The notes below the pieces were generated by a model. That model ran no database searches. It was not told the DNA's origin and was given only the letters and a program-made list of their open reading frames with translations. The position numbers and the translations under genes are program-made. A stretch of 64,000 nucleotides of DNA from a virus (lineage: Duplodnaviria; Caudoviricetes). This document shows, piece after piece, positions 6,553-22,789 of this stretch. Location of the stretch: the IMG/VR virus record IMGVR_UViG_3300011337_000669; one strand, 5' to 3'. Every line of letters starts with the position of its first letter. Position 1 is the first letter of the stretch.

Positions 6553-6924
6553 TTACTTCAACTTCCTAAGTTGGTCTCTAATTTCAATCGATTTTTCAAA
6601 ATTTTGTTCTTCGATTGATTTTTTAAGTTCCTCTTCAAGTTTGTCGATTTCCTTTTGGTTAATTTCTAATTTCTTGATTTGGTCTCTTAGTTCAACCGCT
6701 TTTTCAAAATCTTCATTTTCAATTGAGATTTCAAGTTGTTGTTTCAAATTTTTTGAAGTTGGGTTTGTTTTGGTGTTGTCGTGGTAATACGTAGTTATTT
6801 TCATTGTCCCATCTTCTGAAACTTTAGTTTGAGTTTTCCACTCTCCGTTATTTGGGGTTAATTGTGCGAACATTTCATCGAACGCTCTAAAGATGTCATT
6901 ATAAGATCTTCTGTTACCAAACAT
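6553..6924 (-). CDS. Protein with two UVR (UvrB/UvrC) coiled-coil motifs
   Basis: LEISIENEDFEKAVELRDQIK and LKKSIEEQNFEKSIEIRDQLR; divergent from clpC. Confidence 0.8.
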   Translation of the reverse strand: MFGNRRSYNDIFRAFDEMFAQLTPNNGEWKTQTKVSEDGTMKITTYYHDNTKTNPTSKNLKQQLEISIENEDFEKAVELRDQIKKLEINQKEIDKLEEELKKSIEEQNFEKSIEIRDQLRKLK

Positions 6925-7102
6925 AATTTTAGTTTTTTATTTTAAGTTTATTTGTTATCTTTGTTCCAAGATTTATGCCGATAGTGATTATATGACATTA
7001 TGACAGAAAAAGATTTAATAACATTAAATATTTCCTGACAATTTGTCCAATCATTGGGATAAGAATAAAAATTGTTATTACTTTGTAAAAACTAAAAACG
7101 TT

Positions 7103-9118
7103 ATGAACGACTTAATGGACGACGAAGACAAAATGATGAGTAAAAGACAGAAGTCAGGCGGGGACAGCTCGACTCCTGTACTGGACAATTTCAGTAGAGA
7201 TTTGAATAAGCTCGCCGAAGAAGGAAAATTAGACCCCGTAATTGGAAGGGATAGAGAAATCCTGAGAATTGCACAGATTCTTTCCCGAAGAAAAAAGAAT
7301 AACCCAATCATTATTGGAGAACCTGGTTGTGGTAAGACCGCTATTGCTGAAGGTCTAGCAATGAAAATCGTAAGTGGTGAATGCCCTCGTAATTTGTTGG
7401 ATAAACGACTCGTTAATTTGGATTTGACTTCAGTTGTTGCTGGTACAAAATACCGTGGTCAATTCGAGGAAAGAATGAAAGTAATCCTTGAAGAACTTAG
7501 TGCAAACCCTAACATTATTGTATTCATTGATGAGATCCATACTCTAGTTGGTTCAGGTAATTCATCAGGAGCTATGGATGGTTCCAACATCTTCAAACCA
7601 GCATTATCTCGTGGTGAGATTCAAGTAATCGGTGCGACAACTTTGGATGAGTTCAGAAAACACATTGAAAAAGATGGAGCGTTAGAGCGTAGATTTCAAA
7701 AAGTAATTGTTGAACCATCTACTGTGATTGAAACAATTGAAATTTTGAACAACGTTCGAGATAAATACGAAACATACCACAAGGTAATTTACTCCAATGA
7801 AGTTATCGAAACTTGTGTGAAGTTGGCTGACAGATATATTACCGACCGTGAGTTTCCAGACAAAGCATTCGACATTATGGATGAAGTTGGTGCTAGAATG
7901 CAGACCGAACTTAAGGTTCCTGAGGTAATCGAAGAGTTGAAGCGTAAAGCCGCTGACCTGAAACAACAGAAAATGGATGTTGTGAAGAAACAAAACTATG
8001 AACAAGCCGCCCAACTGAGAGACAAAGAGAAAAAGTTGTTGGACAAATTGGAACAAGAAAAACAGAAGTTTGAGGAACAAATGTCCAAAGACAAACAAAA
8101 GATTAGTTTGGAAGATGTTTATGATGTAGTGTCAAACATGACTAAAATTCCTGTCAATAAAATGTCTGTGGATGATACCAAAGCGTTGTTGAATTTGGAT
8201 AAACACATCGTTGGAACTGTCATTGGTCAGGATGCTGCGGTTATCAAGGTTGCAAAATCAATCAAGAGAAACCGACTTGGCATCAAAGACCCAAATCGTC
8301 CGATTGGTTCATTCGTTTTCTTGGGTTCAACAGGTGTCGGTAAAACTCACCTCGCAAAACAACTTGCAAAAGAAATGTTTGGTAGCGAGGACGCTCTAAT
8401 CCGTGTGGATATGTCCGAATATCAAGAGAAGCATACCGTATCCAAATTGGTTGGAGCGCCTCCAGGTTATGTTGGATACGAAGAGGGTGGATTGTTAACC
8501 GAGAAAGTTAAGAACAAACCTTACTCTGTTATCTTGTTTGATGAGGTTGAGAAAGCTCACAAAGATGTATTCACCGTATTACTTCAAATCTTGGACGATG
8601 GTCACGTTACGGATAGTTTGGGTAGAAAGATTAACTTCAAGAATACCCTGATTATCTTAACATCAAATCTTGGAGTTAAAAAATTACAGGACTTCGGAAC
8701 TGGTATTGGATTCTCAAATAATACCTATAGTAACGAAGAAGCGAAGAAAGAAATCTTGATGAAAGAAATGAAGAATTTCTTTTCACCTGAATTCATCAAC
8801 CGTATCGATGACACCATCGTTTTCAATTCTCTATCTCAAGAGGATATCAAGAAAATCACAGACATCGAACTTAAGAAGTTGATGAAGCGTCTTGACGAAA
8901 TGAAGTATAAGATTACTTACGATGAATCACTTTTGAATTACCTATCAAAAATCGGATATGATGAGGTATACGGTGCAAGACCACTCAAGAGAGCGATTCA
9001 GGACAAAGTTGAAGACTTATTATCTGAAGAAGTTCTGACCGACAAAATTATCGTAGGAAAAACCTACGTGATTAAAGTCGAAGATGAAGTAGTCAAAGTA
9101 GTCAAGAAAGGTCGGTAA
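7103..9118 (+). CDS. clpC: ClpC-type AAA+ unfoldase lacking the N-terminal Clp repeat domain
   Basis: GEPGCGKT/IVFIDEIH (NBD1), UVR M-domain QNYEQAAQLRD, GSTGVGKT/ILFDEVEK (NBD2), GIGF ClpP-docking loop, YGARPLKR; likely start MNDLM at 7103. Confidence 0.92.
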   Translation: MNDLMDDEDKMMSKRQKSGGDSSTPVLDNFSRDLNKLAEEGKLDPVIGRDREILRIAQILSRRKKNNPIIIGEPGCGKTAIAEGLAMKIVSGECPRNLLDKRLVNLDLTSVVAGTKYRGQFEERMKVILEELSANPNIIVFIDEIHTLVGSGNSSGAMDGSNIFKPALSRGEIQVIGATTLDEFRKHIEKDGALERRFQKVIVEPSTVIETIEILNNVRDKYETYHKVIYSNEVIETCVKLADRYITDREFPDKAFDIMDEVGARMQTELKVPEVIEELKRKAADLKQQKMDVVKKQNYEQAAQLRDKEKKLLDKLEQEKQKFEEQMSKDKQKISLEDVYDVVSNMTKIPVNKMSVDDTKALLNLDKHIVGTVIGQDAAVIKVAKSIKRNRLGIKDPNRPIGSFVFLGSTGVGKTHLAKQLAKEMFGSEDALIRVDMSEYQEKHTVSKLVGAPPGYVGYEEGGLLTEKVKNKPYSVILFDEVEKAHKDVFTVLLQILDDGHVTDSLGRKINFKNTLIILTSNLGVKKLQDFGTGIGFSNNTYSNEEAKKEILMKEMKNFFSPEFINRIDDTIVFNSLSQEDIKKITDIELKKLMKRLDEMKYKITYDESLLNYLSKIGYDEVYGARPLKRAIQDKVEDLLSEEVLTDKIIVGKTYVIKVEDEVVKVVKKGR

Positions 9119-9775: not shown

Positions 9776-10609
9776 TCAAAACGGATGAAACTGTCCTCTT
9801 GGAACTGACTTTTTGAAATGTAATTTATATCCCAAATCTTCAATCATTTTTCTTCCCATTTCTATCCCGTTGAATACGTCCTCAATAATTACATATTCTT
9901 CAGGGCTGTGATAATCATAATAACCAATAGAAAAATTAATACAAGAAAAATCGAATTTACTTCTCAAAGCATAAACGTCTGTGTATGGGTGAACCATATA
10001 TTGCATTTGTTCTGTAATCATTCCTTCAGTCAAAACTTTATCAATTTTTTCGAAGAACTCGGTATCTCTGTCAAATAATATTTGACCAAAACATTTTTCA
10101 GTAATCATCCAATTTTCTGGAGCATCGAACTGAATACCATATCCAACATTTTCAAAAAATTTGGAATCGGCAGCTTTTGATCCGTGACATCCAGTTTCTT
10201 CTGAAGCAAAGAATGCTGCTTTTATATTTGGTAATTCTTTGAGTAAAGTTAAACAAGCAAACACACCACATTTATCGTCTCCTCCAATACCTGTTGGTCT
10301 CTCATTATCATTAAATGCTTTCAACGCTGGTTTTAATTCACCTTGAGCATTTTTCAACATCATTTCTTTGACATTGATTGTATCGATATGGTGAACTGTA
10401 TCAGTATGTGATATTACACAAGGAAAATAAAAATCTTCAGGAAGGCCAGTTGTTTCTTGTTTGGTCGCATAGATATTCAATTTGTCATCAACATAATGTT
10501 CTATGTTGTTTTCGGTTAACCAATTAACCAAAAATTCAACCATACGATGTTCTTGGTAAGTTTTTGTGGGTACGCTCAAAACTTCTTTGAGTAAAGTTAT
10601 ATCTTTCAT
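9776..10609 (-). CDS. Zn-dependent M20/M28-like peptidase
   Basis: SHTDTVH, GGDDKCG, SEETGC, HPYTD, YYDYHS metal-ligand motifs. Confidence 0.8.
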   Translation of the reverse strand: MKDITLLKEVLSVPTKTYQEHRMVEFLVNWLTENNIEHYVDDKLNIYATKQETTGLPEDFYFPCVISHTDTVHHIDTINVKEMMLKNAQGELKPALKAFNDNERPTGIGGDDKCGVFACLTLLKELPNIKAAFFASEETGCHGSKAADSKFFENVGYGIQFDAPENWMITEKCFGQILFDRDTEFFEKIDKVLTEGMITEQMQYMVHPYTDVYALRSKFDFSCINFSIGYYDYHSPEEYVIIEDVFNGIEMGRKMIEDLGYKLHFKKSVPRGQFHPF

Positions 10610-10629
10610 TCTACAAAGATATAAATAAA

Positions 10630-11673
10630 TTAGATTTCATCCAAACTGAATAAGGATGGTTGGTATAATAAATTGTAAAAATTTTGTTCACTCACTGTTA
10701 TAGTTTTTTGTTTTAATCCTTTCGACAATGTTACCACCACTTTCATCTCAGGAAACTTAAATCCTTCAATTTTGAACCTTGTTTCTTTTTTGGAATCTTT
10801 TGGTAAAAAGTAATATTCTTCTTGTCTGAACTTTTTCAAAATTCTCGAAGTCATATCAGTGAAATCTTTGATAGTGACTCCCTCTTCTTCTCCTTCTTCT
10901 TCAATAGTTTCCAAAATATCACTAAAAAACCTGTTTGCAGTTCTGTTGAAACTTGAAGAATCAAAGTCATCTGGGTCTTCATAAGTATAATAATCTTCTT
11001 GCCAACCACCTGGAGCCTCTCTTCTACCAAAAACTCTTTCTAATAATTCTTTTATATCTAAATGAATGGCGTTTTCATTAATATATAATGCCAGCAAGTC
11101 TGCCACCGTTATTCTGAATCCATTATGATATGCATCAATACCCAACTCAGCATAATACTCATCCATTTCTTTATTTATAACTTTCTCAAGAGATATCTTG
11201 AATGCATGATTTTTTTCGTCTACGTAATCTTCAACAACATATTTTATTTGTTTTCCAAAATTTTCCATCAATTTTCCGGATAACTCCTTTCTGTATTCAT
11301 CATCTTCGAAGTTGACTTTCATAGGGAGTATGGCTTTGGAAATTTCAGACAATAACTCCTTATTTTCTTCATCCAAAGTGTAGTAAAAACCATACCCCTC
11401 CATGAAATCTTCTATGGCAGAATAGTGATCCAAAAATTCATACTCAGAATAAGGTCCTGTCATCATTTGATAAAACCAAACATCATCATCCCGCATTCCC
11501 AAAGCTTCTAAAAAATCTTGTTGATTGTTAAATTCAATATCAATAACGCTCTGTCCTGGCATACTTCTGTCTTCTCTCATGTAAGAGAATAACTTATCGG
11601 AAGATAAAAGTTCATCTTTGGTTATTTTTCTTTTAGCATAATTTCTTAATGCTGTGAACGTTTCTATATTCAT
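10630..11673 (-). CDS. Hypothetical acidic protein
   Basis: ORF-track frame, probable start MNIETF at 11673. Confidence 0.55.
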   Translation of the reverse strand: MNIETFTALRNYAKRKITKDELLSSDKLFSYMREDRSMPGQSVIDIEFNNQQDFLEALGMRDDDVWFYQMMTGPYSEYEFLDHYSAIEDFMEGYGFYYTLDEENKELLSEISKAILPMKVNFEDDEYRKELSGKLMENFGKQIKYVVEDYVDEKNHAFKISLEKVINKEMDEYYAELGIDAYHNGFRITVADLLALYINENAIHLDIKELLERVFGRREAPGGWQEDYYTYEDPDDFDSSSFNRTANRFFSDILETIEEEGEEEGVTIKDFTDMTSRILKKFRQEEYYFLPKDSKKETRFKIEGFKFPEMKVVVTLSKGLKQKTITVSEQNFYNLLYQPSLFSLDEI

Positions 11674-11736
11674 ACCACAAATAAATATCAATTTAGTTGG
11701 ATTCGGAAATATTTATACTTACATTTGTACAACAAT

Positions 11737-12150
11737 GGGGTAGAAAGGTATAGATTGGCATTGTTGGAAATAAGTGGCACGTAGTCAGAATTCATCTATG
11801 ACTTAAATCTATGGTGAAGAAAGTAACCGGCAATACTCTTGCTAAGATGGCTGCTCTAGGTTTAACTAGAGAAGCGTCTGTTGTAACTGCTTAATTAGTA
11901 GATATAACGTCGGGTCGAATGGGCATATAACCTCGGAACAGAAGCCCTCCAAGGTGGATACCACCCGAAGCGTATCAAAAGGTCTCGTTCAGAGGGCTAC
12001 CTTATTACAAGTGAACTCGACACAGTTATTGGTGACAATGTCAAAATAGAAACCAAATATTTCGGAAGGTATGAAAAACCTTGACCTAAACGTGTAGGCA
12101 TTTATTGTCAAGATGAGCAAGACCGCAGTTCGAATCTGCGCTACTCCACC
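11737..12150 (+). ncRNA. ssrA: tmRNA
   Basis: Acceptor GGGGTAG/CTACTCC with G3:U wobble, discriminator A, T arm GCAG-TTCGAAT-CTGC, internal tag ORF 11829-11894 after TAACC resume context, upstream TACATTTG promoter. Confidence 0.93.
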
Positions 12151-12156
12151 TTCAAC

Positions 12157-12190
12157 AAAAAAGGGTTCGAAATTCGAACCCTTTTTTTTT
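12157..12190. terminator. Bidirectional intrinsic terminator between ssrA and the lipoprotein gene
   Basis: aaaaaagggttcgaaattcgaacccttttttttt perfect hairpin with A and T tracts. Similar hairpins near 6521, 9121, 17572, 19885, 20648, 22166, 35238, 50420, 53610, 53881, 56273, 57745, 60258. Confidence 0.85.
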
Positions 12191-13385
12191 AGTTTCCTTT
12201 AGACGGAAATCTTGTCCATCCATTTACCCATATAGGTTTATCTAATTCAGGTATTATCACATCAACTTCCTTATTACTTTTTGATAGCACCAATGTTTTA
12301 AGTTGTTCACTTGTTAGAATTGTAGTTGCTCTACTAATGAAATTCAGATTTGGATTGAATGTCCCGACCGAATTGTTTTCAAAGACAGATACACCATCTT
12401 TAACAAATTGAGTTGTTTCATTACTTTCCAAACTCAATCCACCTTTCATCCAACCCCAAACTACGCTATTCTTCATTGTGAATTGGGTCGATCTTCTGAA
12501 TCTCAAACCTAAATTGTGGTTTGCTAATGCTGTGGATACATTTGGTCCAACCAAAATCATATTGTAAAGTTTTGGGTGTGTGTAAGGTTGTGCTGAGGAT
12601 CCTGTTCCATCATTATCACATTCCACACCATTTCCAGCGTCACCACTATCCACAAATTGTGGGTCTCTTTTTGCAACTCCGTTTGTAATCATTCCTGTAT
12701 AACCAAAGTCAAAGTCGAAATCATCATCTGCGGTTGCGTATGCGTAAAGATTTTTACCATTTACAGTTCCACCAAAGAATTCAAATGCGTCGTCGTTAGC
12801 ATATATTGTTTGGATGTTTTCAAGAATTGTTCCGTTTCCTACACCTCCGAGAGTCAATGCGTTTATTTCAGAGTTTGGTAACGCTGCGATTCCTGCGTAT
12901 TCGATTCTAACGTATCTCATTACACCACTATTGTCAGAATCATTTGTTCCTCCATAAGGTCTTCCGATTCCACCTTCGATTGTAGGTTCAGAAGAACGGT
13001 TTGTATTCGCTCTACCTAAAATTACTATACCACCCCAATCACCAGGAGATCGTTGTCCCTCGGGTCTCCCTGACGTAAATACGATAGGTTTGGTTGGGGT
13101 TCCTTCAGCAATTATTTGAGAACCTCTTTCAATACATAACGCTCCTTTCTCAGCAACATCAGAAACTATGGTAGTTCCAGGTTGGATAATAAGTTTTGCT
13201 CCATCGGTCACATAAACATATCCTTTGAGAGTCCAAACTTTGTCAGAGGTCAAAGTTATTGTGGTATTGATGTTTCCTGTCAATGTAGTTGTTTGTGGAA
13301 CATTGATTGGTGCTTCGTCACCTCCAAGTTCTGTGTTACAACTGTAGAGTCCTAATGCGATTAGAATTGTTAATAGTTTTTTCAT
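12189..13385 (-). CDS. Bacteroidota-type surface lipoprotein (beta-helix-like), TonB-receptor associated
   Basis: Lipobox LGLYSC; repeated DNSG/DDAFEFFGG/DDDFDFD/GNGVECDN motifs typical of lipoproteins encoded beside TBDRs; overlaps the TBDR stop. Confidence 0.75.
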   Translation of the reverse strand: MKKLLTILIALGLYSCNTELGGDEAPINVPQTTTLTGNINTTITLTSDKVWTLKGYVYVTDGAKLIIQPGTTIVSDVAEKGALCIERGSQIIAEGTPTKPIVFTSGRPEGQRSPGDWGGIVILGRANTNRSSEPTIEGGIGRPYGGTNDSDNSGVMRYVRIEYAGIAALPNSEINALTLGGVGNGTILENIQTIYANDDAFEFFGGTVNGKNLYAYATADDDFDFDFGYTGMITNGVAKRDPQFVDSGDAGNGVECDNDGTGSSAQPYTHPKLYNMILVGPNVSTALANHNLGLRFRRSTQFTMKNSVVWGWMKGGLSLESNETTQFVKDGVSVFENNSVGTFNPNLNFISRATTILTSEQLKTLVLSKSNKEVDVIIPELDKPIWVNGWTRFPSKGN

Positions 13386-15868
13386 AAATTAAGGTTTAAG
13401 GATAATGAGATTATTGTTTCATTATTTGTGTTTATTAAATTACGGTTTGCTATTTTTTGATAGTTTATTGATGGTTGTGCGAAAATATCTGAGATTGCCA
13501 ACTTCAATTCTCCCTTTGGAAGTTTGTGTAAAAAAGTAATATCCAAAACATCTCTACTATTTTCGAATATGTCAGGATATCCCTGAAATCCGACAGCAGA
13601 AATCCTTTCTCCAATTCTATTGTAGGTTAGATTAAGTGTATTATTTTTCTTATTGATGTTTACACCTGAATTAACAACATAGTTTGATTGTCCTTGTAAT
13701 TGTCTTTTTACACCATTCACATCAACCTCAGAATTCATGACTGAAGCGTTTGTGTAAAAATCGAACCATCCATTTATTCTTTTTCTCACTTCCATTTCAA
13801 CACCATATACAATCGCAGATTCAGGATTTGCATAAGTTAAAAGTAAGTTGGATGGAACTGACCCATCGGCAACAACTTGTTCGATTGGGTTTACGAAATT
13901 TTTACCAAAGAATGAGAGAGAAATGTTTTCTGTGTTTGAAGGATATAACTCGTATTTCAAATCAACATTGTATATGTCGGTTTTTTTCAAGTTGGAGTTT
14001 CCTAATATTTGTGCGTTTCTAACAAAATCATAATATGCAAAGTTTGCGACTTCTCTGAACTCTGGTCTTGCCAAGGTCTTACTCAAAGAGAATCTATATT
14101 TTGTTTTCTCCAAGTTATATGAAAGGTTCAATGATGGAAGAATGTCCAAATATGTTCTATCAACATTTACCTTTTGACCACTGAAATCTGCGGTTTCAAC
14201 ATCAAACAAGTTGTATTCACCTCTTACACCTGTATTGATTTTCCATTTTCCAATTTCGTTCTCATACATCGTATAAAGATTACCCAAATCAAAGTCAGCG
14301 GTGTATCTATCTGTATTGTTGGTTATTTCATCCAATAAATCCGTTGTTTGATATCTGAAAACTCTTGCGTTAAACCCTCGAACCTTTTTCAAATAACCTC
14401 CACCAACTTCAAATTTACCCAAATCTTTTTTCAAGTTTCCGTTAAATGAATTCTCATCCATAACACTCCAAAATCTGTAAGTATCTCTCCATGCTGTCGC
14501 GAATGGTTCATTTACGCCCAATGATTTGGTGATTGGGTTAATTCTATAATCAGGTTGTTCTCTGAAGACGTAGTTATATCCGAAATTGAAATCAAAAGTT
14601 TCAATATTACCATCAACCTGTGAGTTGATTACCACGTTATTGATATGGTTTGACGCATTACTCAACACATCTTGAACATTGTCAAAGTTCTGACCTTCTC
14701 TTGTCAGGTATGAACTTTCTTTTTGGAAGTTTGCCAATGTTTTCCAACTATATTTGTTTTTACCCAAATAAGTTAAGTTCAATAATCCATTTGTGGAGAA
14801 TCTCTGTGTGTATAATCTATCGTTATAATCGTATGCCAGTTCTGTGGAAGATTGATAATCCTTTCTCTCAATGTTGTTGAGAGTATATGAGTTTCTTACT
14901 GTTGAACTGAATAATGAATTGAATTTGTTTTTCACATAACCAAATGAAACTCCGCCATTTAAGTTTGGTATGGATTGAAACCCATTTTCAGTTGGGGTTC
15001 CTATTTGTTTGGTGAATAGTCGTTTGTCTCCATTACCACTAATTCTGTATTTGTAAGTGGAAGGAAAGGTTGACGGAAATGGGATCGATTCCACCAGTTT
15101 GAAGCCTCGGAAAGTCGAGACAGACCCTATTCCCGTCCCGAAGCTTACGTCCAAAAAATTGTCGGACACCTCCTTTGTCGATACTTGAACCAATCCTCCA
15201 CTCCAATCACCAGGTTGGTTTGCCGAAAATGATTTGGAAACCATAATATTATCAATCAAAGAAGTTGGGATAATATCAAATGAGAATGCTCGTCTATCAG
15301 GTTCTGTGGAGGGTAAAGGTGTTTGATTCAATAATGCCGAATTATATCTATCGGCAAGTCCTCGAACCAAAACAAATTTGTCATTCTGAATTGTGACACC
15401 ACTTACTCGTTTCAATGCGTCACCCAAATTTCTATCGGGGGTCTTCTTTATGAATTCTATTGATAATCCATCGGATACCACAATATTATTTCGTATAGAT
15501 TTCATAACCGATATGTCTGTGACTTTTTGTGCGGTTCCTCGAACTAAAACTTCGTTTAACTCCGTATCGGTCGCCTCAAAAATAATATCCAAGTTAGTAA
15601 CGGTGGTTACAGTAATGGTCGTTACGAAATCTTTGTAACCAATATAAGTCCCTTTAACTTCGTAAGTTCCTTCGTTGAGAGAAACATTATACTTTGCGTT
15701 TTCATCAGAAATTGTTGTGAATTTATTACCACTAACATCTTGGAAAGTTACGTGAGCAAAATAAATGTCTTCTGTTTTTGATTTTGTTGTTCCATTGATG
15801 GTTATTTGTTTTTGTTGTGAAAACACCGTTAATGGAAATAAGAGCAAAAAAAATAGATTCTTAATCAT
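13382..15868 (-). CDS. TonB-dependent outer-membrane receptor
   Basis: Signal peptide MIKNLFFLLLFPLTVFSQ (start 15868), CarboxypepD_reg-like N-domain, ELNEVLV TonB-box region, plug DALKRVSGVT..FVLVRGLADRYN, barrel motifs TLARPEFRE and NLDLKYELY-like, alternating C-terminal strand. Confidence 0.9.
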   Translation of the reverse strand: MIKNLFFLLLFPLTVFSQQKQITINGTTKSKTEDIYFAHVTFQDVSGNKFTTISDENAKYNVSLNEGTYEVKGTYIGYKDFVTTITVTTVTNLDIIFEATDTELNEVLVRGTAQKVTDISVMKSIRNNIVVSDGLSIEFIKKTPDRNLGDALKRVSGVTIQNDKFVLVRGLADRYNSALLNQTPLPSTEPDRRAFSFDIIPTSLIDNIMVSKSFSANQPGDWSGGLVQVSTKEVSDNFLDVSFGTGIGSVSTFRGFKLVESIPFPSTFPSTYKYRISGNGDKRLFTKQIGTPTENGFQSIPNLNGGVSFGYVKNKFNSLFSSTVRNSYTLNNIERKDYQSSTELAYDYNDRLYTQRFSTNGLLNLTYLGKNKYSWKTLANFQKESSYLTREGQNFDNVQDVLSNASNHINNVVINSQVDGNIETFDFNFGYNYVFREQPDYRINPITKSLGVNEPFATAWRDTYRFWSVMDENSFNGNLKKDLGKFEVGGGYLKKVRGFNARVFRYQTTDLLDEITNNTDRYTADFDLGNLYTMYENEIGKWKINTGVRGEYNLFDVETADFSGQKVNVDRTYLDILPSLNLSYNLEKTKYRFSLSKTLARPEFREVANFAYYDFVRNAQILGNSNLKKTDIYNVDLKYELYPSNTENISLSFFGKNFVNPIEQVVADGSVPSNLLLTYANPESAIVYGVEMEVRKRINGWFDFYTNASVMNSEVDVNGVKRQLQGQSNYVVNSGVNINKKNNTLNLTYNRIGERISAVGFQGYPDIFENSRDVLDITFLHKLPKGELKLAISDIFAQPSINYQKIANRNLINTNNETIISLSLNLNL

Positions 15869-16026
15869 GTCTTGAATTTTATCAACAATAATTAGGAGGA
15901 ACCCTCTCTCAAACCTGAATTTCAACATTATCAAATGGCTATGTTCTTGTTAAGTGAAAAAACTTTTGATAATTTTTGAATTACGTAAAATATTAGTATT
16001 TTTGTATCACATAGACATCAACCGAT

Positions 16027-21368: not shown

Positions 21369-21923
21369 TTATAATTTGAATGTTGGTAATACTTTATCTT
21401 TGTGTGATACTTTAACATCGATATCTCTTACACCCCAATCAATCTTAAGAGTTGGGTCATTATAAACAATGCCACCTTCGGATTCTTTATTGTAATAGTT
21501 ATCTACTTTGTAATTGAATATTGCTTCGGTTGATAAAACTGAGAATCCATGTCCACATCCTTTCGGTACAAACACCATCTTACCATTCTTATCACTTAAA
21601 TCAACGGTGATGTGTTTACCATATGTGTCCGAATCATGTCTTAAATCTACAATCACATCTCTTACTAATCCATATGAACATCTTACTAGTTTAGATTGTG
21701 CCCATTCTCCTTGTTGAAAATGAATACCTCTAACAACTCCATACTTAGAAAATGATTCGTTATCTTGTACAAATGTAATGTTATGACCTAATGTAAGTCT
21801 TAAAATATCTTCAAACGCATCCTTAACGTATGGTGTTGAAAAGTATCCCCTTTCATCTTTATAGATTTCAGTATTTACAATGAAACAATCTTTGATTTTT
21901 GTTTTTTCTAATTTGTATTCCAT
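21369..21923 (-). CDS. rfbC: dTDP-4-dehydrorhamnose 3,5-epimerase
   Basis: DERGYF, FVQDNESFS..GVVRGIHFQ, KLVRC, VDLRHDS.TYG, VPKGCGHGF, YKVDNYY; start MEYKL at 21923. Confidence 0.92.
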   Translation of the reverse strand: MEYKLEKTKIKDCFIVNTEIYKDERGYFSTPYVKDAFEDILRLTLGHNITFVQDNESFSKYGVVRGIHFQQGEWAQSKLVRCSYGLVRDVIVDLRHDSDTYGKHITVDLSDKNGKMVFVPKGCGHGFSVLSTEAIFNYKVDNYYNKESEGGIVYNDPTLKIDWGVRDIDVKVSHKDKVLPTFKL

Positions 21924-21949
21924 GACTATTTTTAATTTGAATTTCCATG

Positions 21950-22100
21950 CTGTAAGGGATGGATTCGAACCACCACGAGGAGATTCAACAAGTAACATAT
22001 CGCCGGCCGGCTGGTGGTCTACCCCCTCATATTACTTATCTATTTCTTTATCCCCACCCCCGAGACAGGAGGGTTTGTCTGCCAATTTCAACACCTTACA
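21950..22100 (-). tRNA. tRNA-Asp(GTC)-like RNA with ~80-nt variable-arm insertion
   Basis: Acceptor TGTAAGG/CCTTACA, D arm TTG-AAATTGGCAGA-CAA, anticodon arm CCCTC-CTGTCTC-GGGGG, T arm GGTGG-TTCGAAT-CCATC; 151 nt total. Confidence 0.65.
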
Positions 22101-22210: not shown

Positions 22211-22789
22211 TTAAAAATATGTTTGTTCAAAATAAAGAACTTGAAATTTGTCCGATTTGTCAACTAAATTCGATCCATTAATTAAATCATTAAATTCTAC
22301 AACTGATTCCCTTTGAATATTTCTGAATTGTTCAAGAAAGTCGAAAGTAATCAAATCTTCTGCAAATACATCCTGTGAATTTTTGGTGTATTGTTTCATC
22401 AAATACAACTCAAACTCATATGCTTGATGAACGATATCGATCAGGTTGTCAAATTCAAATTTCTCTTTGTTTCCTTCCACAAAAGGGATGATGTTGAAAT
22501 CTGTCATGTACTTTTGAAGGATTTCCGCATGTTCCAACTCTGTTTTGGAGTCAGCATCAAAAAATGCTGCAGCTTTTTTATAATTTTGGTCATGGCACCA
22601 GTTTGCAGCTGCTCTGTATAATCCATGAGCGTGATATTCGTCTTTGATTCTGTCATTAAGCATTTTAACAACCTTATCACTTAACTTATAAAGTTTCGGT
22701 TCATTATTTTTCGATGGAACGTTTTTTGCTTGTTCTGAAAGCTGCACCATTCTATATAATTGTTCTTTAGTTAGAGTTACTTTTTCCAT
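22211..22789 (-). CDS. Ferritin-like protein
   Basis: LNDRIKDEYHAHGLYRAAANW, ELEHAE, YEFE, FLEQFRNIQRE ferroxidase-type pattern. Confidence 0.8.
   Translation of the reverse strand: MEKVTLTKEQLYRMVQLSEQAKNVPSKNNEPKLYKLSDKVVKMLNDRIKDEYHAHGLYRAAANWCHDQNYKKAAAFFDADSKTELEHAEILQKYMTDFNIIPFVEGNKEKFEFDNLIDIVHQAYEFELYLMKQYTKNSQDVFAEDLITFDFLEQFRNIQRESVVEFNDLINGSNLVDKSDKFQVLYFEQTYF

Follow-up and report, generated by a model that had tools for sequence, protein, structure and literature searches.

The window, a 64,000-nucleotide stretch of the IMG/VR virus record IMGVR_UViG_3300011337_000669 (Duplodnaviria; Caudoviricetes), carries on its minus strand two co-directional open reading frames (ORFs), a transporter gene at 13382-15868 and a lipoprotein gene at 12189-13385, together called the cassette in what follows. 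An earlier note on this DNA, made from the sequence alone, had described an intact, coupled ORF pair with signal peptide and lipobox beside the terminator of a transfer-messenger RNA (tmRNA) gene. That description is borne out in every part: the coordinates are exact, the genes overlap by the four nucleotides TTATGAAA, the lipobox cysteine is residue 16, and one hairpin serves both the tmRNA gene found with Rfam and the cassette. The features of the locus are:

13382-15868, minus strand: TonB-dependent transporter of 828 amino acids, with signal peptide, CarboxypepD_reg-like N-terminal domain, TonB box (LNEVLVRG), plug and beta-barrel
12189-13385, minus strand: surface lipoprotein of 398 amino acids, a right-handed beta-helix; putative transporter lid or substrate binder (ElpS / FII / BT4056-type)
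13382-13385, minus strand: ATGA, in which the stop codon of the transporter gene overlaps the start codon of the lipoprotein gene, as the letters themselves show; translational coupling
12157-12187, no strand assigned: two-way intrinsic terminator common to the tmRNA gene and the cassette, a 14-pair stem with an A run on one side and a T run on the other
11737-12151, plus strand: phage tmRNA gene, convergent neighbour of the cassette (Rfam RF00023, 63.8 bits)

The lipoprotein stop codon abuts the hairpin, and the ATGA junction is also present in most of the phage loci compared. An ARAGORN scan of the window did not call the tmRNA that Rfam detected.

Read from the ATG at 15868, the transporter begins with the signal peptide MIKNLFFLLLFPLTVFSQQ; a longer frame from a TTG at 15934 adds 22 unlikely residues and is disfavoured. 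Pfam domains are PF13715 (CarbopepD_reg), PF07715 (Plug, 34.8 bits) and PF14905 (OMP_b-brl_3, 93 bits). The TonB box, TELNEVLVRG, aligns with the LNEVVVRS, LEDVVIKT and similar boxes of bacterial relatives, and in the alignment of phage copies both TonB box and plug are conserved. In the AlphaFold2 (AF2) model the barrel reaches a predicted local distance difference test score (pLDDT) of 85-90, the N-terminal domain is confident and the plug is poorly modelled; Foldseek matched the model to PhuR, Cir, FecA and FoxA (E 1e-21, probability 1.0). By its plug, barrel and TonB box the product of 13382-15868 is a TonB-dependent transporter. Its C-terminus (...SLSLNLNL) has leucine where the beta-signal usually has phenylalanine; the orthologue from Flavobacterium (locus L161) likewise ends in NL. 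No SusC-type NCBIfam match was found for it; the best and only match was TIGR01782, a carbohydrate-type subfamily of Xanthomonas and Caulobacter, which at 171 bits falls below the cut-off.

The lipoprotein starts with MKKLLTILIALGLYSC and has the lipobox LYSC. It matched nothing in local Pfam, NCBIfam and PHROGs; its precomputed family assignment is PF28492. The AF2 model (pLDDT 86) is a right-handed beta-helix. Foldseek against the PDB gave weak generic beta-helix matches alone, and VIA-align gave Z of about 19-24 to AlgG, AlgE4, tailspikes and NosD at 7-13% identity, which confirms the fold and singles out no specific relative. An exhaustive profile-free search with the beta-helix domain collected 6,453 representative clusters, whose members are single-domain lipoproteins or repeats within type IX-secreted Bacteroidota proteins. 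The invariant polar residues of the alignment (D151/S153, T178, D198, D220/D221/D226, N252/E255, N306) are spaced roughly one helix rung apart, and because they recur at that interval they suggest a stacked binding or catalytic groove. Among the phage lipoproteins the lipobox is conserved together with a following K/acidic motif, presumably akin to the Bacteroidota surface-export signal; the window's own copy of the motif deviates. Two other identities were considered. A phage tailspike or depolymerase beta-helix was rejected on the lipobox, the coupling to the transporter gene, the grouping with bacterial surface lipoproteins and the lack of any PHROG match; a SusC/SusD-type pair was rejected since the SusD Pfam match is absent for this all-beta-helical partner, as is the SusC-type match for the transporter.

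Phage carriage was tested through the genomes of relatives, because the window genes sampled included no hallmark structural gene. A search of IMG/VR with the lipoprotein yielded 139 stretches, 80 of which, at 72-95% identity, were taken further; the transporter gene lies directly upstream of the lipoprotein gene in all of the approximately 70 loci whose contig extends far enough. Among the carriers, three records have a rating of complete: one of 326 kb from a close sibling of the phage in the window, one of 171 kb that has terminal repeats, and one of 202 kb. In all three there is a gene for a T4-type Gp23 capsid protein and a single gene for a Plug-domain protein. These related genomes, with the same adjacent pair, confirm that the operon is carried by true phages, as the earlier note had held. 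The window itself contains many tRNA genes and phage-type genes including those for endonuclease VII and homing endonucleases.

The earlier note had also raised the concern of a chimeric assembly, in which host DNA would have been joined to a phage contig. The bacterial look of the two genes is all that speaks for this, and the recurrence of the pair on many independent contigs answers it. The 139 viral stretches come from many metagenomes and several phage contexts and include genomes rated complete; four contigs, the longest of 276 kb, encode a lipoprotein identical to that of the window; the phage copies form a clade of their own, whose identity to ordinary bacterial copies does not exceed 61% for the lipoprotein and 39% for the transporter; and the GC content of the cassette, 0.35-0.37 vs 0.32-0.38 in its surroundings, shows no compositional break. 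Because of the many independent contigs, the complete genomes and the even GC content, host contamination or chimerism is practically excluded.

The surroundings of the cassette vary by lineage. It is convergent with the tmRNA gene in the window's lineage, has unrelated flanks in the 171-kb type, and in other lineages (L025, L036, L043, L078) has the tmRNA gene just upstream in the same orientation; the convergent and co-oriented arrangements point to an inversion in place beside the tmRNA gene. A far more distant pair (38% and 27% identity) was found in the 635-kb phage record LR745206.1 (L001), which also has a T4-type Gp23 capsid gene. There the gene order is reversed, with the lipoprotein first (10608-11705 of the locus) and the transporter following (11878-14316 of the locus), and the pair probably represents an independent acquisition. 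The same record has a second Plug match elsewhere in its genome (138255-138581 of the record, in a protein of approximately 666 amino acids).

Bacterial relatives were surveyed in Bacteroidota and Ignavibacteriota, with one genome per species and the best 80 loci. The homologous transporter is directly beside the lipoprotein gene in about 70 of the 80, the window pair being 40-61% (lipoprotein) and 29-39% (transporter) identical to these pairs, and the best bacterial matches of the transporter are the same loci as for the lipoprotein. Recurrent neighbours are a PiT-type phosphate transporter (PHO4) with its PhoU_div partner, an OmpR-type regulator with a histidine kinase (phoBR-like), PstS-like binding proteins (PBP_like_2), an OlsF-like acyltransferase, and a Metallophos gene with a glycosyltransferase; the Metallophos-glycosyltransferase combination is read as PlcP/Agt-like lipid remodelling. 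On this comparison of sequence and gene order, the phage pair is orthologous to a bacterial pair set in Pho-type neighbourhoods.

Members of this bacterial family have been studied in a few hosts. In Flavobacterium johnsoniae, Fjoh_0545 (PF07715, PF13715, PF14905) and Fjoh_0546 (lipoprotein FII, of pectin-lyase fold) form part of cluster PUSIV in the phoBR region (Lidbury et al., PMC8115612). They rise 8-10 log2-fold upon phosphate depletion only, and repression when iron or nitrogen is limiting is reported for the low-phosphate-induced loci of this species (PMC8115612). A preprint by Price and Arkin puts forward BT4055/BT4056 of Bacteroides thetaiotaomicron as a transporter and its lid, with homology to Fjoh_0546 and, more remotely, to ElpS of Caulobacter; the closeness of the two genes is conserved in 621 genera (10.1101/2023.03.17.533168). 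The lipoprotein ElpS is induced by phosphate starvation, is anchored at the cell surface and has been linked to phosphatase activity (Le Blastier et al., PMC2996285).

The earlier note had proposed a phylogeny to find the donor lineage. In a 98-row lipoprotein tree the 37 phage representatives form one clade (Shimodaira-Hasegawa-like approximate likelihood ratio test, 100), nested with support of 97 in a Chitinophagales/Sphingobacteriales group, among homologues with neighbourhoods of phosphate type. A more careful 33-row tree supports the phage clade at 99/99. Such trees fit a single acquisition, after which the pair would have been inherited vertically in phages for a long time. One lipoprotein from a contig labelled as a Sphingomonadales metagenome-assembled genome (MAG) (L098) nests among Chitinophagaceae sequences; a binning error is the probable explanation, not a proteobacterial copy.

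A 17.4-kb Spirosomataceae MAG contig (G004:C177; loci L082 / L163) holds a pair of the trimmed phage type, at 1799-5517 of L163, with products of 833 and 404 amino acids that are 69-80% identical to phage copies. The pair lies between phosphatase genes, and the contig is genuinely bacterial, encoding a type IX-secreted purple-acid-phosphatase-like protein, a phosphodiesterase-superfamily protein, a two-component system and an L,D-transpeptidase. In 144 of 150 other genomes of the family of G004, the only version is 37-51% identical. The G004 pair falls inside the phage clade in the quicker 98-row tree vs sister to all phages in the careful one, and the approximately unbiased test rejects neither placement (p = 0.31). 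Either the pair was transferred from phage to bacterium, or G004 represents the donor lineage.

Both genes are under strong purifying selection, with function apparently retained: set against the window copy, the median pairwise ratio of nonsynonymous to synonymous substitution rates (dN/dS) is 0.087 (lipoprotein) and 0.118 (transporter), and synonymous sites are almost saturated. The phage copies are consistently reduced, the transporters to approximately 825 amino acids vs a bacterial median of 937 and the lipoproteins to 396-401 vs 455. Some lineages (L046, L050 and relatives) have gone further, to a transporter of approximately 749 amino acids from which the whole CarboxypepD_reg-like N-terminal domain is lost, so that the signal peptide runs directly into a TonB-box-like LDNITIRS.

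This trimming bears on a function that the earlier note had offered as an alternative, receptor masking or superinfection exclusion. Phages commonly use TonB-dependent transporters as receptors, and a loop-trimmed copy might replace or mask the starvation-induced native transporter to which this phage or its competitors would adsorb, blocking further adsorption while keeping uptake, or might act as a vesicle decoy. Compared with all bacterial relatives, phage transporters lack about 76-100 residues, and on this account the deletions would be at hairpin tips (the secondary-structure string used to place the deletions is ambiguous between extracellular loops and periplasmic turns), and the loss of the N-terminal domain in some lineages would fit as well. 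Yet no diversifying selection is seen, dN/dS being approximately 0.1 for both genes; the partner lipoprotein, TonB box and plug, which a mere decoy would not need, are strictly kept; and genome economy in phages would explain the trimming equally well. We regard a decoy or exclusion role as improbable.

Upstream regions were compared across 45 distinct phage and 48 bacterial loci. In bacteria, TAACA words spaced 11, 22 or 33 bp apart occur in 25 of the 48 regions (0.15 expected), just before a TAnnTTTG-type promoter element, and such repeats also precede some PlcP-like and OlsF-like genes. Direct repeats at an 11-bp period are the geometry of PhoB/OmpR-family operators. In the phages, TAAYA-N6-TAAYA occurs in 20 of the 45 regions at a fixed position approximately 76 nt before the start codon (0.36 expected, with a maximum of 3 in 300 trials; background 0.007 per scanned window in phage loci). 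In L066 and L077 TAACA is repeated perfectly two or three times, which matches the bacterial pattern, and most remaining phage lineages have one-mismatch versions of the repeat pair. The element accompanies the cassette through its differing contexts and is not a general phage promoter; we predict that it is a retained host-type operator. The corresponding features in the window are:

15869-15960, minus strand: upstream control region, tentatively read as a Pho-box-like operator with a Bacteroidota-type promoter
15952-15948, minus strand: TAACA half-site, from comparison with the upstream regions of relatives
15930-15926, minus strand: TAATG, 22 nt on from the TAACA (TAACA-N17-TAATG)
15913-15910, minus strand: TTTG, a possible -33 element of a putative promoter
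15894-15886, minus strand: TAATTATTG block near the transporter start codon, conserved in the comparison of phage upstream regions

The earlier note had named phosphorus or iron as the nutrient. Its phosphorus part is supported by the bacterial neighbourhoods, by the 11-bp-phased repeats and by the phosphate-only induction in Flavobacterium (PMC8115612). Its iron part is not, having as sole support a ferritin-like gene which is real (22211-22789, minus strand; PF00210, 60 bits) and stands, as the note said, approximately 6 kb away (6.3 kb, beside a tRNA cluster); in other phage lineages, where flanks differ, no linkage of ferritin and cassette is seen, and iron was rejected as the main reading.

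More broadly, the pair could import iron, a sugar polymer or nucleosides instead of a phosphorus compound. The lipoprotein has the fold of polysaccharide-active beta-helix enzymes, and the top NCBIfam match of the transporter, below cut-off as it is, is to a carbohydrate-type subfamily; the ferritin-like gene would be counted here too. Uptake of a non-phosphorus nutrient is nevertheless unlikely: the bacterial neighbourhoods are of phosphate type rather than siderophore or carbohydrate-active enzyme loci, induction of the F. johnsoniae pair is reported under phosphate depletion only and not when iron or nitrogen is limiting (PMC8115612), and the ferritin gene lacks linkage to the cassette elsewhere. 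A phosphorylated glycan as substrate could merge this alternative with the phosphorus reading, and the caution of the earlier note that the transported molecule cannot be read from the sequence still holds.

We hold with moderate confidence that the cassette is a host-derived auxiliary phosphorus-scavenging module of a lytic T4-like jumbo Bacteroidota lake phage, probably under host PhoB. An auxiliary nutrient-uptake role, which the earlier note had proposed, is the best reading of an operon that is intact, predicted to be export-competent and phage-borne; because both genes derive from the Bacteroidota phosphate-starvation gene set, the phage probably helps starved infected cells to scavenge phosphorus.

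The module would work as follows. The cassette would be a trimmed copy of the bacterial phosphate-starvation outer-membrane importer, transporter plus beta-helix lipoprotein, and during infection the host Sec, Lol and Bam machinery would export both proteins. The lipoprotein, on the cell surface atop the barrel, would capture and possibly process a phosphorus-containing ligand, which the transporter would bring into the periplasm on host TonB-ExbBD energy; dependence on the host is proposed here because TonB_C was not found in the four carrier genomes searched. These four also had no PstS-like gene, and three of them had PhoH. Host systems would hand on the imported cargo. Transcription would probably follow from host PhoB acting on the 11-bp-spaced direct repeats kept upstream of the cassette, and the module would then appear in infected cells short of phosphorus, in which the synthesis of phage DNA is limited by that element.

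Several points weigh against this reading. For the phage copies, where the proteins sit, how the genes are regulated, what class of substrate is taken up and how the phage gains are all inferred. The phage transporter is approximately 100 amino acids shorter than bacterial ones, mostly at strand-connecting segments, which could mean altered function. The window's upstream region has one perfect TAACA and a TAATG 22 nt off, not the clean pair of other lineages, and the phage repeats lie approximately 25 nt farther from the putative promoter than do the bacterial ones. No experimentally defined Pho box or PhoB site of Bacteroidota was found in the literature searched, and a study of cyanophages warns that Pho-box prediction in phages is unreliable and often fails (PMC10976474). 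The tie to Fjoh_0546, BT4056 and ElpS is indirect, through the Flavobacterium orthologue pair L161 (48% and 30% identity), which stands beside a kinase/regulator two-component pair. Finally, the bacterial family is known but poorly characterised, its substrate included.

A bolder version, which we offer tentatively and think possible rather than probable, is that large Bacteroidota phages have evolved a minimised importer, with shortened hairpin tips and in some cases no N-terminal domain, that may both scavenge phosphorus and present a surface unusable by competing phages, and that this phage-shaped version has moved back to the bacterium G004.

Marine cyanophages provide the textbook example of phage genes that boost phosphorus uptake, in the form of periplasmic PstS and phosphatases. 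If the phosphorus-scavenging reading is true, the principle extends to an energised outer-membrane importer with a surface lid, to Bacteroidota, and to phosphorus-limited freshwater lakes. At least 139 viral stretches carry the cassette, among them phage genomes between 171 and 326 kb in size, and the 635-kb phage adds the distant pair; being so widespread, the cassette could affect the competition of infected cells for phosphorus. Studying the compact phage versions may also be a convenient way to learn what this common, uncharacterised bacterial transporter family imports.

Other genes of the window include a small protein with two UVR motifs (6553-6924, minus strand), divergent from an adjoining ClpB/ClpC-type double-AAA ATPase (7043-9118, plus strand; phrog_4871, 803 bits), a pair that recalls a phage-carried adaptor plus unfoldase. 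A dTDP-4-dehydrorhamnose 3,5-epimerase is encoded at 21369-21998 on the minus strand (PF00908, 203 bits).

Among known systems, the closest likeness drawn here is to Fjoh_0545/0546: the same PF13715, PF07715 and PF14905 transporter has a pectin-lyase-fold lipoprotein directly downstream in both, and the Flavobacterium orthologue L161, like the F. johnsoniae pair, has a kinase and a regulator gene for neighbours. The window pair differs in being on a lytic phage, in the absence of adjacent phoBR genes, and in size and sequence, the transporter being approximately 100 and the lipoprotein approximately 55 amino acids shorter, with 30-48% identity to the Flavobacterium orthologue through which the comparison was made.

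BT4055/BT4056 and CCNA_00170/ElpS similarly pair a non-SusC transporter with a surface lipoprotein proposed as its lid; for ElpS the kinship is distant and taken from the literature. For the hosts of the window's phage we know of no type II secretion-dependent protease system. Such a protease releases ElpS in Caulobacter crescentus (PMC2996285). SusC/SusD pairs of polysaccharide utilisation loci and PusCD pairs of phosphate utilisation loci share with the cassette a Bacteroidota barrel capped by a surface lipoprotein, and PusCD pairs are also induced by phosphate starvation, but the window's partner is a beta-helix whereas SusD is helical.

Whole TonB-dependent transporter genes on phage genomes have a precedent in phages of ammonia-oxidising bacteria, where siderophore- or haem-type genes are described as morons or auxiliary genes (10.64898/2026.05.02.722434); the part of that report available to us mentions neither a partner lid lipoprotein nor a phosphate link. 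The cassette was absent from the literature searched on phage-encoded TonB-dependent transporters in jumbo and huge phages. The protein family is already known in bacteria; for its conserved carriage by lytic T4-like phages no description was found in the literature searched.

A functional parallel is cyanophage pstS/phoA, with pstS under the control of the PhoBR system of the host (Zeng and Chisholm 2012, cited in PMC10976474). The cyanophage genes encode a periplasmic binding protein and a phosphatase, in contrast to the outer-membrane TonB-dependent importer with lid, the Bacteroidota hosts and the predicted regulation of the present case. The likeness is fourfold: phage copies of host Pho-regulon uptake genes, host-type operator repeats upstream, which for the cassette are predicted, a T4-like background, and phoH in related genomes.

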